DNA of 64,000 nt, taken from positions 101,556,001 through 101,620,000 of the forward strand of contig OX597815.1 of assembly GCA_951406725.2 (NCBI GenBank). Reading direction: 5' to 3'. A model generated the notes under the pieces. It made no database searches. It saw only the letters and a program-made list of their open reading frames with translations, and was not told the DNA's origin. Positions within the stretch are counted from its first letter, which is position 1. Each line of letters begins with the position of its first letter. Source of the stretch: Octopus vulgaris. Taxonomy: Eukaryota. Below are positions 18,771 through 58,880 of this stretch, in pieces. A program made the position numbers and the translations under genes.

Positions 18771-19311
18771 AACACATGCGTACATACCATACATAAACAC
18801 ACCTATATGTATACACACTCAAATAGATTCATACATACATTCATACACACCAGTGGTTAATATATTATATACCAGCCATTCCTCAGGCAACACACTGAAG
18901 CAACTTGTGTATTTATCCTTTATTTATTTATATTGATCTTGTCTTGTTGTCTATTAATTAGTTCGCCAAAAACATTCATGAAACCTATCTATGAAAAGGG
19001 AAATCGGTGAGGAATTAGTCATGGCTATACAAATACACGCACAGGAACATATATATATATATATATGTGTCTGCTTGTATGTGTGTATATGTGTGTGTGT
19101 ATACACACACATGCCCATACATGCGCACGCATATATCTCTGTGGTTCGTGCCTATATGTATGGTTGCACCTGTTTTTACATGTATGTATGACCATATTTG
19201 TCCGTGAATAAAATACGCTTCTTTTCTACATCCTTAAATATGCTTATTCATCCATCCATCCATCCATCCATACATATATACATACATACATATATACATA
19301 TATATACATAA

Positions 19312-19379
<68 letters not shown>

Positions 19380-19389
19380 CATATATTCA

Positions 19390-19912
19390 TATTACACGAA
19401 GAAGGTAGCCTCTATGTGGCACATAAGCTACTGGGAAAGACTCAAGAGATTGGACTCTATTCCCTAGAGCGTAGGCGCGAAAGCTATACCCTAATATACA
19501 TCTGGAAGATCCTGGAGGGTCTTGTTCCAAACTTTTGGCATTGAGAGTTACACTAACGCTATAACAGGGCGTCACTGCATAGTGCCAAAGATTCCAACTT
19601 TGCCATCAAAATATAGGACAAGATATCGCAACAGTCTGGACTTTAAAGGTCTACAGCTCTTCAATATCCGCCCGAAGGACCTGAGAGACCTGCATGGGGT
19701 GGCTGTAGGAGTCTTCAAAACGAAACTAGATCTCTTACTGTTAAGAGTCCCATATGAACCAACTCCACAGCAGGAAGTGCAAATGAGGGTAGCGGCGTCA
19801 AATTCCCTCGTGCACCAAATGGCAAGTTCCAAAATGAATTAGTGAAGTAAAAGTTATGTAGCAACACCAAATTGCGGTGCCCCAGCATGGCCACAGCTAA
19901 TGAGCTGAAACC
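19390..19912 (+). mobile_element. 5'-truncated LINE 3' end (CR1-group-like) with 3' stem-loop tail
   Basis: SYWERLK...LYSLERRRE...[13 protein letters not shown]...FKGLQLFNI...FKTKLDLLL...PYEPT, followed by the tail GCGGTGCCCCAGCATGGCCACAGCT-AATG-AGCTGAAAC. Clade assignment is tentative. Confidence 0.8.
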
Positions 19913-38269: not shown

Positions 38270-41200
38270 TGAATGATATTCAAAAAGTAAACAAAACCGA
38301 AATAACGAAGAAAATACCGTCATGGGTTTTCAAGACAGAGGAAAAGATAACTGGTTTACGGATGACCATCAGTCATGTAATGATGCTTATTGCATGCAAG
38401 CAAGCAAATCACTATACGTCCCACCAACAGAAAGTAAAGAAGGAGGTAGAAATGATGTTTGGAGACAGCAAAAAGAGGACACCCACAAACAGATTACCCT
38501 CAAGCAGGAGCTAAAAGCTGTCAGTGAAAAACTCTGACATCAGAAGAGAAAAGCTGAGAGAACAATAAGCAAACAGTTTAACCGCAACCAGGCAGCAGTA
38601 TACAGAGACATGAAAGGAGGAGCAGTAAACATCACTGAAGCTCCTTCACGAGAAAACATAGACTCCTGGAGGAAAATCTGGAGTGAAGAGAAGGAATTTA
38701 ACCAAGACGCTCTGTGGCTGGAAGAAATCCAAAAAAGTTATTGCTCCTGCATTACATCGAAGGCATACAAGATTGATGGTGAAACTCTTGCAACAATGAT
38801 CCAGAAACTCCAGGGTGGAAAAGCACCTGGAAGAGACTTGATTGCTGGATATTGGTACACGAAGCTAACATTCTACCGACCACATCTTATCAATCTGTAC
38901 CAGCAAGCGTTCATTGGGAACAGTGGGATACCATACTGGTTAGCTCTGGCAGAGACAAAATTGATCTCCAAATGCAGAACCACTTATATGGCAAAAAACT
39001 ACTGGTTAATTGTATGCCAGAATTTAATGTATAAGATATATACAGCATGTTTAAACTTCTTCTTACTGGACCATTGTGAAACCAGTAACATTATCATAGT
39101 AGAACAAGAAGCTGGGAAGAAGGGGTCCTGGGGATGTGCTGAGAAATTGTTAATCAACAAAACTGTGATGCCAGAGGTGCGAGAGCATGGGAGGAACCTA
39201 GTGTCAATGTGGCTAGACTACAAGAAAGCCTTTGATTCTGTTCCCAACTCATGGATGCTAGAAGCCCTTCAACATGCTATGGTTCCAATGATAATTATCA
39301 AAGTCATACATTACCTGACTTCATCATGGGCCACCATCTTGAAATTAAACATAAAGAGCGACTGTATTATCAATCGATAGAATACAGTATCGCCAAGGCA
39401 TATTCCAAGAGTACAGCCTCTCTGTAATGTTGTTTATACTTTCCGCAAACCCCTAGTCATTCATGTTAAGGAAGTCTGAAGGATATCTCACTGGTTCACG
39501 AGTAAACAGAAATACCAAAATTACACGCTATTTCTTTGTGGATGACTTAAAACTTTATGCATAGAATATGCATGAGATGAAAATGAGCCTTGACCTAGCT
39601 ACAACATTCTCAAAAGATGTAGGATTGGAGTTTGGTCAGGATAAATGTTGTTATATGTATGTGAAAAGAGGGAAAACTATAAACCAGACTGGTAACAGCT
39701 CTATGAATGATTTGACTGTTTCCCCTGATCTGACGAGGAATATTACAGGTATCTAGAGGTGGATGAAAATATATCTTACAGTGGCACCTGTAACAAAACA
39801 CGTGTCACTAAAGAATATTACAGCCGAATAAAGAAAATTTGGACCTCAGAACTCTCAATAAAACAGCGGCCCACAATGTGTTTGCAGTATTAGTACTCAT
39901 ACCAACATCTGGGCTGTTTGAACAATTGATGAGATCCGAGCCATTGATGTGAAAACCCGAAAAATACTAACAAGCACACATAATTTCCACATAACAGTGA
40001 ACAAGACCGCCTCTATTTAAAACGAAAAAAGGAGGAAGAGGCTTAAAATCAATCCCAAAAGCCTTTGAATGTCGCATCATATCCCTTCAGCAACATCTTT
40101 TAACCAACAAGTGTCGAAGTGCGTCCCTTGACCAAGTTGCATACATGAAGTTAATTACATCATAAGACTTGGAATGCAGCTCCTTGAGCAACACTCTTTG
40201 TCTGATAACCTAGAATACATGCCCAAAAAAGTAACACGACTCTACAGCAACGTATCATCAGATGAAAGGATGAACCTATATCAAAAGAAGACATGCATGG
40301 ATATGATACTAGAAAGCTTCGTGATGATAGTAACATCGATCATCAAAGCAGTTTATCGTGGACGAATAGCCGGATTACTACCTCCCACATAGAAGGGTAT
40401 GTGTTTGCAATCCAGGAACAGGAAATATCTACCAAGTACCTGATGAACAAAAGGGACAGAGATGCAGATAAAGCCGTAAAGTGTGACAACTTATGCAGAC
40501 TTTGTAGTGTTCACACTGAAGATATCACCCACATCATAAGCAGTTGTTCGAAAATGTCATCAGGGTGTTATCTACCGATGAGACATGACGTTGTAGCTAG
40601 GAACTCTATAATGAAATTCATCGGAAGGATAATCCTAAGGACAAAGAAATAAGAAGCCACATTATGGTAGAAGCTATAGTCACTCATAATAAAAAGGAAT
40701 ACTGATGGAATGTACCAGAGAAGACCTCAATAAAATGTAAGCACAACATACCTGATATAATGATTTGGGATTAGAGAATAGATACTGTGCACAGTTGTGC
40801 AGATTAGCTGCACAGCAGATGTTAACTTAAAGCTGAGGATCAATGAAAAAGAGAATACCTATGCTGAACTCTTGAGAAATCTGCAGTTACCCTATCCTGA
40901 TTACAAGTTCAGGTTTATACCTGTAATTATTGGGGCCCTGGGATACGTAACATACTGCCTAAATTATCAATCTTGAGAAATTATGCTTCTCAAAACCAGA
41001 AAGGAGAAGGCTAATTCGAAGTCTACAGATCCATTCCATCGCTGGAACTGTAAAAATCTGTAAAACTTTCCAGAAGTTTTTCATTTAAATATATATGAGC
41101 ATGTCTAGATATGCAACTATATGCATGAGAATACACACATAAAACATACAAGTCTGCACATACATACTTACAAATCTGCACATGCATACATACATGCATA

Positions 41201-48816: not shown

Positions 48817-49071
48817 AATACATATATACATATATATTCTTTTATTCTTTTATTTTGTTTCAGTCAACTGGAGCACCGGCTTTTAGTCGTAGAAATCGAC
48901 CCCTGGTCTTAATGTTTGTAAGACTTGGTGCTTATTCTATCGGTCTATTTTTCCGAACCGCTAAGTTACGAAGATGTAAACACACTAACACCAGTTGTCA
49001 AGCGATGGTGGGGGGACAAATACAGACTTAAACAAACACACATAAATATATATACATGTGTGTGTGTGTAT

Positions 49072-49579
49072 AAATTAACAGAATGAGATAAAAACCCAAG
49101 GATGTAAAGATTTAAGAACGTTTATAAATAGAAGGTCTTACAGCTGTTTTCGGGATATTTTATATATCCTTTCATCGAAGACGGTGTGAGAAAATGGATA
49201 AGCAATAGTTATTTTAGATAAGATATGAAATAGAGGAGGAATGAAAATACATTAGGCAGAATGGTATACATATAAGATTCCTCTACCTTAAATACTATTG
49301 GAACTTAATTACAAGGTACAGGAATGTTATATATATACCATTCTGCCTAAATAATGGAACTGAAGATGCAATATCCCTGCATATCTCACATGCATTTTCA
49401 TTCCTCCACTTCCCTCTCTATTTCATATCTTATCTAGAATAACTATTGCTTATCCGTTTTCTCACACCGTCTCCGATGAAGGAATATATAAAATATCCAG
49501 GAAACAGCCGTAAGACCTTCTATTTACAATTGTTCTGGAATCTTTACAGCCTTGGATTTTTATCTCATTCTGTTAATTT
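49072..49579. mobile_element. Foldback element with an HHR motif in each arm (49135-49182 minus; 49469-49516 plus)
   Basis: Imperfect inverted arms of ~220 bp. The plus arm reads gtct-CCGATGA-a-GGA(A)TAT...ATATCC-ag-GAAA-CAGCCG-TA-agac; the minus arm has stem III CAGCTG. Confidence 0.85.
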
Positions 49580-49768
49580 TTATATATATACACATGCTGA
49601 TATATGACCTATGTTGAACTCCTCATTCGCATAATCACCAAACCTAGAGCATAACTATAGTCTGTCCATAGCACTTACTCAGCATTACCTGATACATTTG
49701 GGTCTTCTTGACACCATTACCTTTCATAACCTATATATAATATATATATATATATACACATACATACA

Positions 49769-49926: not shown

Positions 49927-49969
<43 letters not shown>

Positions 49970-50183
49970 CAATAATAATTCTCTAAACGAGATATAGACA
50001 GTAACTGCTCCATAACATAAGGGACGTTAGCCATCTGAATGTGGCTAGGGACAGGGCAGGGCGGTGGGGGTGTTACTGATGCATTTAGCCCCAGGCGATC
50101 ATCAACGTCACCAGGAGGGCTGACGCCATCACGGCGTCCTCTAGCCTGCAAAGGGAGATCATTCCCCGAAGAAGCGGATGCCA

Positions 50184-50228
50184 CATACGGACCTAGGTTT
50201 CAAGGTGTTTGCCTATTATCAACGTATG
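50184..50228 (-). ncRNA. Minimal type I hammerhead motif, U3-A8 variant; predicted cleavage after GUC (between 50190 and 50189)
   Basis: catacg-TTGATAA-t-AGG caaaca CCT-t-GAAA-CCTAGG-TC-cgtatg. Confidence 0.8.
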
Positions 50229-50749
50229 GCAGGCACCGCTCCTCGACGAACGACTCTCTGTGCAGGCTATATATAAAGATTTTCACAGTAAATACATTTA
50301 CTGATGTAGAAAATCTGTTCGACAGCAATAATAATTCTCTAAACGAGATATAGACAGTAACTGCTCCATAACATAAGGGACGTTAGCCATCTGAATGTGG
50401 CTAGGGACAGGGCAGGGCGGTGGGGGTGTTACTGATGCATTTAGCTCCAGGCGATCAGCAACGTCACCAGGAGGGCTGACGCCATCACGGCGTCCTCTAG
50501 CCTGCAAAGGGAGATCATTCCCCGAAGAATGTATGGCAGGCATCAGTAACACCCCCACCGCCCTGCCCTGTCCCTAGCCACATTCAGATGGCTAACGTCC
50601 CTTATGTTATGGAGCAGTTGCTGTCTATATCTCGTTTAGAGAATTATTATTGCTGTCGAACAGATTTTCTACATCAGTAAATGTATTTACTGTGAAAATC
50701 TTTATATATAGCCTGCACAGAGAGTCGTTCGTCGAGGAGCGGTGCCTGC

Positions 50750-50794
50750 CATACGTTGATAATAGGCAAACACCTTGAAACCTAGGTCCGTATG
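50750..50794 (+). ncRNA. Same hammerhead motif in the inverted copy; predicted cleavage after 50788
   Basis: Identical sequence to the minus strand of 50184-50228. Confidence 0.8.
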
Positions 50795-50962
50795 TGGCAT
50801 CCGCTTCTTCGGGGAATGATCTCCCTTTGCAGGCTAGAGGACGCCGTGATGGCGTCAGCCCTCCTGGTGACGTTGATGATCGCCTGGGGCTAAATGCATC
50901 AGTAACACCCCCACCGCCCTGCCCTGTCTCTAGCCACATTCAGATGGCTAACGTCCCTTATG

Positions 50963-51000
<38 letters not shown>

Positions 51001-57660: not shown

Positions 57661-58468
57661 AAGGCTAATTTCGGTTTAATTCCAAACAACGTTTAACGCA
57701 CACGAAAAAAAAAAAATGAGTGTACAGTAAAATATATAAAAGTTTTTCGGTAAAAGAATGAAAAATTCAACGTTTCCAATAAATTGTCTTTGTGTATGGA
57801 TAAGTATCAGAAATATTGCGGTTTTCAATCTTTCTGGCAACTCGTTTTATTATCTACGAACTTTTATTGATAAGCTGTTGTATATTTACATGAGATTCCG
57901 AATATAAAATATGTTTGTAATATAGAATATTGGTTAGACGTGGAGTATTTGTTCTCTGCGGTCAGAATACAAATCCCGGTGAGGCCAACTTCGTAATCCA
58001 TTCTTCTGGCGCTAATATGCATCAATTCTGGTGGTAGTTTGGCGGAATTGTTAGAGCGTAGGACATGTTATCCTGTTGTTCCGGTTCTCTGAGTTCTGAC
58101 AGCAACGACTACAAGATTATCAGTGTCAAGTTGCAACGTTCTGACCTTTCTCTTGTACACTATTGCTGGCGTGAAAACGGATGACTTGCATGCATGGAAA
58201 ACCACATACAATATTTGTTATATATGAATCTAGAGTGTTACCCGTCATGTGACGGGTAAATTTACATGTATTTTTTTTTCAACAAAGAATATTTTGATAA
58301 AAGATAGATTATATTATTGTATTTATGTCATTTTTCTTGATTTTACCTATAGTGACACAAGTATGTATGTTAATATTATTGTAACAATTGTAGTGATACA
58401 TTCATTTAGAACAATTTACAATAAATTCCTAATCGATTTTTTAGAATATATATATATATACATATATA

Positions 58469-58880
58469 CCAATTCTACTATATGGCTCAGAAACCTGGAC
58501 GTTATCAAAGAAGCTTGAGAGGCGGTTGGATGGAACCTACACTCGCCTCCTTATGAGAGCTCAAAATCTCTCGTGGAAGCGTCATCCAACCAAAATGCAA
58601 ATATATGGGAAACTATCACCTTTGTCATCTCTTGTGAAAGGTAGGAGAGTCCAGTTTGCTGGACATTGTTGTAGAGCTGAAAACGAAGCAATTTCTACTC
58701 TTCTCCTCTGGAAGCCATCTACTCGCGATACCAGAGGGCGCACACTCTCCTACCCTGATGTAATCTCCAGGGATACAGGCATCTAGCAACAGGACCTCCG
58801 TAATGCTATGATGGACCGTGAAGTCTGGCGTAGCATGGTAAATTCCATTGTCTCGACCACGGTCGAACAATGATGATGAT
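58469..58880 (+). mobile_element. RTE-superfamily LINE 3' end with (TGA)n tail
   Basis: ILLYGSETWTLSKKLERRLDGTYTRLL...RRVQFAGHCCR...MMDREVWR, with one in-frame stop, ending in TGATGATGAT. Inserted in TA-rich repeats. Confidence 0.9.

Follow-up and report, generated by a model that had tools for sequence, protein, structure and literature searches.

We propose, with a probability of about three in four, that the insertion at 49968–50966 of the window (the whole stretch of 64 000 nucleotides of Octopus vulgaris DNA that was analysed) is a copy of a non-autonomous non-LTR retrozyme, whose RNA circle arises from cut multimers and is copied into (TA)n by the reverse transcriptase (RT)-endonuclease of a Penelope-like element (PLE). 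Judged from the sequence, its unit has the features of a non-LTR retrozyme, and self-cleavage and a circular RNA are predicted for it. The unit repeats in tandem with a period of 356 nt, inside the 150–450 bp range of this class, carries one type I hammerhead, is non-coding with a G+C content below 50%, and is highly self-paired.

Architecture of the insertion

The insert of 1 kb consists of two head-to-head arms of 562 nt and 427 nt within (TA)n. Runs of TA are found at 49930–49968 on its left, where a target-site duplication is unreadable within the repeat, and at 50964–50999 on its right. Arm 1 (49968–50529; 1.58 units) has the minus strand as its ribozyme strand. Its 3′ end at 49968 falls on a position that we call the long site (circle position 222, counted downstream from the ribozyme cut) and its 5′ end on circle position 17. 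Arm 2 (50540–50966, plus strand; 1.20 units) runs from circle position 108 to the short site (circle position 178). The 44 nt from circle position 179 to 222 form a tail that is found at the end of arm 1 only (49968–50011, minus strand) and is lacking from arm 2; its length in the window is 43–47 nt, allowing for overlap with TA. With one end at each fixed site, the insertion is of the long + short type described below. Between the arms lies an insert of 10 nt (50530–50539). The 12 nt at 50531–50542, of which the final 3 also belong to arm 2, match circle positions 311–322 exactly in antisense; a template jump over the long stem is their likely origin.

The first-pass annotation had described a 356-bp period with a direct (~1.6-unit) and an inverted (~1.2-unit) arm, inserted in (TA)n with few differences between copies, and our measurements agree. 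The period shows 2 differences in 206 nt (49968–50173 versus 50324–50529) and 1 in 71 nt (50540–50610 versus 50896–50966), and the inverted arms (50012–50438 versus 50540–50966) differ at 2 of 427 nt. The description of the unit as GC-rich had to be given up: its G+C content is 48.3%, which is high only relative to the 35.7% of the window.

Each arm carries one type I hammerhead with a UUGAUAA core, a GUC site and U–U at the base of stem II, as had been annotated. That of arm 1 lies at 50184–50228 (minus strand, predicted cut between 50190 and 50189) and that of arm 2 at 50750–50794 (plus strand, predicted cut 50788/50789). In the latter, stem I is CATACG/CGTATG, the core TTGATAA (U3–A8) occupies 50756–50762, and the cleavage site is GTC. 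Stem II has the U·U base, then AGG/CCT with loop 2 CAAACA, followed by GAAA and C-CTAG-G; the 8-nt palindrome ACCTAGGT is located at 50780–50787. Rfam matched no hammerhead at the insert, even with E-values up to 5 and 10, and no ribozyme on either strand of the unit. On the antisense strand of the unit, no hammerhead core was found. Because the insert has one hammerhead per strand, no monomer can be released from it in cis; it is a young retrozyme copy and likely a dead end. Monomers would have to come from elsewhere, as had been supposed, and could be supplied by 14 distinct family A units running from cut to cut at other loci.

The hammerhead caps a long interrupted stem (50709–50836, plus strand) with compensatory changes between families A and B. 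This stem survives from the first reading of the sequence, except for one of its proposed pairs: TGCCA/TGGCA shares bases with stem I, and the covariation agrees better with TGCC/GGCA and a bulge of 3 nt. A TAGCCA/TGGCTA hairpin (50931–50950, plus strand) is located just upstream of the short end and is kept in related families; it may serve the reverse transcriptase as a cis-element. Another repeat (L082:1640–2030 and L025), the ends of which we take to be Helitron-like, contains 64 nt that resemble retrozyme positions 109–172, the TAGCCA hairpin included.

An older PLE-end insertion is situated beside the retrozyme at 49046–49731. It has head-to-head arms (49046–49241 and 49410–49605), a decayed hammerhead near 49470–49520 and (TA)n; its tail is about 140 nt long. 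The repeat has 2,933 candidates in the genome, and its relatives run into GIY-YIG coding sequence. Broken LINE-type reverse-transcriptase fragments were noticed by eye in the ORF list at 38538–40652, 19212–19842 and 58445–58786.

Copies and families in the genome

The genome searched comprises 2.8 Gb in 227 contigs and is rich in microsatellites. The 356-nt unit gave 1,360 candidates, of which 40 were scored, with 130 matches. A pattern for the family A hammerhead had 114 exact matches, with U at core position 3 in 100 of 100 among the matches listed, and a clade-wide hammerhead pattern had 2,301 exact matches in the genome, compared with none for the reversed control. Family B is ~77% identical with a unit of 352 nt (146 matches of one motif), and family F has a unit of 353 nt; families C, D and E were chance finds. 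The distant, retrozyme-like family G (2,724 candidates; L313–L332) has a 362-nt period and a head-to-head layout with two ends ~50 nt apart. Thirty distinct cut-to-cut units of 352–362 nt were collected, the 14 of family A among them, and loci with two to three near-identical tandem units are present. The first-pass claim of a recent retrozyme insertion with a variant core is supported; the core is conserved, and other and multimeric copies exist elsewhere in the genome.

The clade is one of ~350-nt non-coding hammerhead units. On the ribozyme strand of the unit, the longest frame starting with ATG has 33 aa. An antisense frame of 104 aa was rejected as coding, since it is not kept in families B, D and F. 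Two long-period arrays (L251, L252) were rejected as multimers: the retrozyme and its flank were duplicated in tandem as DNA, in four copies of 1.38 kb in one array and two copies of 1.63 kb in the other.

Two fixed 3′ ends

We mapped 112 insertions and kept 104. Of the eight rows dropped, two were segmental duplicates and one a tandem duplicate, three were diverged pieces of L253, and two were 64-nt matches in another repeat. No unique central region was seen in the 104 insertions. Of their 173 outward 3′ ends, 148 map to a pair of fixed sites separated by ~44 nt; the windows allowed for the sites make up about 5% of the circle. The short site (~178) accounts for 72 ends, the long site (~222) for 76, and 25 lie elsewhere. 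Two outward 3′ ends are found in 69 of the 104 insertions: 45 are long + short, one is short + short, none is long + long, and 23 have an irregular end. Where both ends are at fixed sites, one is therefore long and the other short in 45 of 46 insertions. (TA)n borders 113 of these 148 ends; since most ends are embedded in such repeats, a target-site duplication would not be readable there. The 5′ ends are evenly spread round the circle, with 11–20 per 30-nt bin. Circularly permuted copies had been expected; instead, the ends are fixed at two PLE-type start sites and are not freely permuted. A minor class of 3′ ends stops ~20–25 nt short of the short site (L003, L010, L012, L250, L264, L267 and the PLE arm of L271).

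PLEs are described as having partial tandems, an inverted 5′-truncated copy, a tail of 30–40 bp at one end and a bias for microsatellites (PMC8557442). According to in vitro work, the tail is the stretch between two internal starts of reverse transcription, and both target strands are cut and extended (PMC11167929). The retrozyme works like such PLE cargo: the tail at one end (at 44 nt slightly above the 30–40 bp quoted for PLEs), the inverted arm, the partial tandems and the (TA)n bias are all present. The two fixed ends of PLE type and their long + short pairing point to PLE machinery as the driver.

The template

The cut site is crossed by 147 of 174 arms, and 83 of the 174 are longer than one unit, 15 longer than two and three longer than three, with a maximum of 1,093 nt; these crossing counts and lengths are inflated, as loci were chosen as best matches or by motifs. 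Within 4 nt of the cut there are three of 174 5′ ends versus 3.9 expected. Family B loci were picked by a motif on the downstream side of the cut; of their 29 arms, 25 continue across the site and none ends at it. Since arms cross the cut freely, a cleaved linear monomer read once is ruled out as template. The arms are periodic past the cut for up to three units, in line with the original claim of a circular or multimeric 356-nt template.

At subfamily-diagnostic sites, the parts of one family A insertion rarely differ, either between rounds (23 differences in 1,151, 2.0%) or between arms (30 in 1,928, 1.6%), in contrast to separate loci (17,170 in 47,595, 36%). Families F and B show the same contrast. 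Rounds and arms share subfamily alleles; each insertion therefore derives from one RNA sequence. Comparison of 71 head-to-head junctions revealed exact matches only within L265 or between two loci 3.5 kb apart (L012/L045), and one near match, which involves distant subfamilies. Inversion junctions are not inherited between unlinked loci. The end and junction data favour a circular template over a homogeneous uncleaved multimer or repeated template jumps, which genomic copies alone cannot tell from a circle. One inversion junction is found twice in L265, the second time in inverted order, and likewise in L045 taken together with L012, with short and long ends on the outside; these double junctions possibly represent a hairpin cDNA intermediate that was copied again.

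Contigs of runs X1, X2, X5 (RNA by guess only) and X16 cover the unit, and those of X1 and X2 show the wrap-around joint. As this joint is also given by tandem genomic copies, it says nothing on expression or on a circle. The neighbouring PLE-end repeat is covered as well or better in the same runs.

Conservation of the hammerhead

Among 154 motifs, the core is C3–G8 in 43, U3·G8 in 49, U3–A8 in 59 and non-pairing in three, so that positions 3 and 8 are able to pair in 151. Loop 3 reads CUAG, UCGA, UAUA or UGCA in 112 motifs and pairs with itself, G·U allowed, in 146. The retention of the 3–8 pair and of the loop-3 palindrome despite sequence change points to selection for cleavage. Many members of the clade have a mismatch at the base of stem II; this and the wobble cores (U3·G8, 49 of 154) may make cleavage slow. 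L066, which is outside this count, has a C3·A8 mismatch in both arms, and hence a non-pairing core was mobilised at least once.

Neither the U3–A8 core nor the U·U base of stem II is new: the former is known already from Schistosoma PLE hammerheads (PMC4209133) and the latter from axolotl HHR_Amex2 (PMC7229834). A tree of the motifs (79 rows, rooted at the midpoint, with good support for 23 of 76 inner branches) places U3–A8 in separate clades. The tree leaves the order of C3–G8, U3·G8 and U3–A8 unfixed, and we therefore claim no direction of core change. U3–A8 cores turned up in retrozyme families A and G, a D-like clade and two PLE families of Neptune type, which have no flanking sequence in common (L205 3′ end, L274–L303, L313–L332). 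Its recurrence across PLE and retrozyme families is an unexplained convergence.

RNA folding and covariation

The ribozyme strand of the 356-nt circle gave a predicted fold of −120.1 kcal/mol (z −4.9), and none of 100 dinucleotide shuffles was as low; the other strand gave −116.3 kcal/mol (z −4.1). The unit is thus highly self-complementary on both strands, as had been proposed. The predicted pairing of the circle is 68% and its predicted structure is branched. In an alignment of 29 units of families A and B, both sides are changed in 13 of 89 pairs and 97% of the cells pair, compared with 37–51% when the alignment is slid; these figures rest largely on two related families and on the structure derived from them, and are inflated by kinship.

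For the linear dimer of family A, the lowest-energy fold is a double hammerhead (probability 0.82). The same fold has a probability of 0.50 in family F, 0.31 in D and a weak 0.045 in B. In the circle, the probability of stem II is 0.003, and the active hammerhead fold costs 5.5 kcal/mol. The dimer is accordingly predicted to be active as a double hammerhead and the circle to be inactive.

A candidate PLE driver

A GIY-YIG search of the genome gave 6,136 candidates, of which 150 were scored, many with an identical frame of 781 aa. The RT domain, a CxxxxCxxC linker and GIY-YIG are intact (Pfam RVT_1, GIY-YIG) in all 16 copies selected for a frame of this length; the label Neptune for this family rests on the linker as described in PMC8557442. 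These 16 copies show a median difference of 0.7% and terminate within (TA)n, 12 at a short site and four at a long site ~40 nt away. The element contains a hammerhead-like motif with a UUGAUAA core, and its tail lies just before ORF1. The loci L202–L217 and L304–L312 represent this very young Neptune-type family, which has two ORFs and in which many copies keep the 781-aa frame intact. Its 3′ region contains repeated TGACGT and GATTGG boxes and TATAAA, which look promoter-like by eye. The intact young Neptune-type PLE is a candidate driver of the retrozyme. Other PLE tails in the genome measure 42 nt (a related family) and about 32, 140 and 150 nt.

No homology of the unit was found to the neighbouring PLE family or to the L071/L111, L131–L171, 781-aa and L274–L303 families. 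Searches by blastn and with a clade profile over 168 PLE-containing loci, which sample part of the PLE families of the genome, matched only separate retrozyme insertions. As the unit is without sequence homology to the PLE ends examined, we infer the driver from the architecture. Small CTCG..GAG hairpins in the tails look alike by eye. At one locus (L271, the same as L261; 2629–4410), a family F arm, which has its short end in TA, directly adjoins the RT region of the PLE with the 42-nt tail, with no TA between them; the other arm of this PLE ends in TA. This single case resembles a retrozyme–PLE chimera and is suggestive of either a template switch in one event or an insertion by which an older PLE copy lost part of its sequence.

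Alternative explanations

The same element and PLE driver might use another template, either an uncleaved linear multimer from read-through of tandem loci or a linear monomer with template jumps, the hammerhead and the circle being by-products. In vitro, an anole PLE accepts uncleaved RNA for insertion and can do without its hammerhead (PMC11167929); template jumps can be recognised at the junction between the two arms described above and in insertions of three and four pieces, and source loci with two to three near-identical units exist. However, daughters of a linear template should inherit the 5′ junction of their source, and exact matches among the 71 junctions are confined to L265 and L012/L045. 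Retention of the 3–8 pair and the loop-3 palindrome argues for selection on cleavage, and without a circle the copy length would be expected to shrink over generations. We regard a linear template as unlikely. Very unlikely, in our view, is that the unit is the pseudo-LTR of a coding Penelope-like element and the insertions are its truncated ends. Tail, inversion, partial tandems and (TA)n are indeed PLE features, and about 110 insertions were read out of more than a thousand. Yet the 5′ ends are spread evenly, the arms are periodic up to 1,093 nt, and 35 single-arm 5′ flanks have no common continuation. By tblastn, PLE frames were detected near nine other of 106 loci; those inspected lay beyond (TA)n or apart, except at L261/L271. 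Real PLE ends in the genome run into their own ORF and carry other hammerheads. The first-pass annotation had itself raised the case of a mere terminal repeat of a coding PLE; in the insertions read, the arms stay on the circle and no ORF is contiguous with them. Since the arms pass the cut, reach three units and never enter coding sequence, the unit is to be classified as a non-LTR retrozyme and not as a PLE terminal repeat.

A viroid-like circular RNA that is infectious or replicates itself, and that now and then enters the genome, would share the size, the 68% predicted pairing and the ribozyme, and the subfamilies do differ by many compensatory changes. We consider it extremely unlikely: the antisense strand is without a hammerhead core, the predicted structure is branched, and the genomic copies, which number thousands and form graded subfamilies, are consistent with ordinary retrotransposition. 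The term viroid-like, used at first, was dropped on the evidence of the antisense strand, and no sign of RNA-to-RNA copying was seen. Amplification at the DNA level without an RNA step, as a minisatellite or fold-back element, is scarcely credible. Direct and inverted repeats are present, and L251 and L252 were later duplicated as DNA together with their flanks, but this origin is contradicted by the polarity of the ends (3′ fixed, 5′ ragged), by strand-specific RNA covariation including G·U pairs and by the dispersal of copies of one to three units.

Comparison with known systems

The octopus unit shares much with the metazoan non-LTR retrozymes of coral, mussel and axolotl (PMC7229834), which likewise are non-coding units of 150–450 nt (350–390 nt in mussel) with one type I hammerhead of canonical size, G+C below 50%, tandem copies and a predicted self-paired circle. 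The axolotl HHR_Amex2, which has the same U·U base, works best as a dimer. Unlike the elements described there, the octopus copies are dispersed, have at most ~3 units in our sample, are mostly arranged head to head, show two fixed ends with a PLE tail and have U3–A8 and U3·G8 cores. The octopus hammerhead is predicted to be inactive in the circle, whereas PMC7229834 predicts it to be free to fold in most animal circles.

Neptune-type PLEs with an endonuclease (EN+), as described in PMC8557442 and PMC11167929, resemble the octopus unit in partial tandems, an inverted 5′-truncated arm, a tail at one end, (TA)n bias and a hammerhead upstream of two start sites. The octopus unit differs from them in having no ORF, in closing on itself and in having no detectable homology to the PLE ends examined; its hammerhead is full-size with loop 2 and a stem I bulge, in contrast to the minimal one of EN+ PLEs. 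The Schistosoma Cercyon PLE hammerheads (PMC4209133) share core covariation and a palindromic loop 3 for dimer cleavage. They are minimal, whereas the octopus U3–A8 core is found in a canonical-size ribozyme of a non-coding unit, beside C3–G8 and U3·G8 relatives.

Mobilisation of retrozymes by PLEs has been proposed before (PMC7229834), and the mobilising enzyme of animal retrozymes and the circle as template have been a hypothesis since 2020 (PMC7229834; PMC7761336). A preprint on vertebrate retrozymes as non-autonomous PLE derivatives (bioRxiv 10.64898/2026.07.22.740005) proposes the same partnership. Its text bases this on co-occurrence and pLTR homology, with local tandem expansion, whereas in octopus the evidence is an insertion signature in each copy; the homology between unit and PLE reported for Xenopus contrasts with none at the PLE ends examined here. 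Our literature search did not find the tail-and-inversion two-start signature for retrozymes, a point on which the supplements of PMC7229834 and of the preprint may bear. The main text of a cephalopod repeat annotation (PMC13282606) contains no occurrence of retrozyme or hammerhead.

Proposed cycle and significance

Tandem loci with two hammerheads, which are present in the genome, would be transcribed by read-through. In the transcript, two palindromic loop-3 segments may pair to give the double hammerhead and release a monomer, as folding prediction and conservation suggest. The PLE protein would then nick both strands of (TA)n and initiate reverse transcription internally, at a pair of sites separated by 44 nt; the fixed ends, the long + short pairing and the target are seen in the copies and point to this enzyme. 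Both cDNAs would run past the cut for up to three units and be joined head to head, as is found in the DNA, with a circle rather than an uncleaved multimer as the probable template. A circle has no 3′ end. PLEs are retroelements shown to start internally (PMC11167929). By analogy with other retrozymes (PMC7229834), closure of the monomer, the step between release and insertion, may be performed by a host ligase, and the ribozyme in the resulting circle is predicted to be inactive.

A more far-reaching version, for and against which we see the chances as evenly balanced, is that a ribozyme-made circle of 356 nt hijacks the internal initiation of PLEs by RNA shape alone, that rolling-circle copying regenerates the multimeric source loci, and that a fold switch (dimer active, circle silent) gates the cycle.

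The clade offers a natural series of C3–G8, U3·G8 and U3–A8 hammerhead cores. The octopus copies provide a two-start signature, start sites to within a few bases and a candidate intact RT-endonuclease, by which the hypothesis becomes a bench test. If the more far-reaching version is true, the whole cycle of an animal retrozyme could be rebuilt in vitro, since the start sites can be read exactly from the genomic ends and the same genome encodes an intact partner protein.
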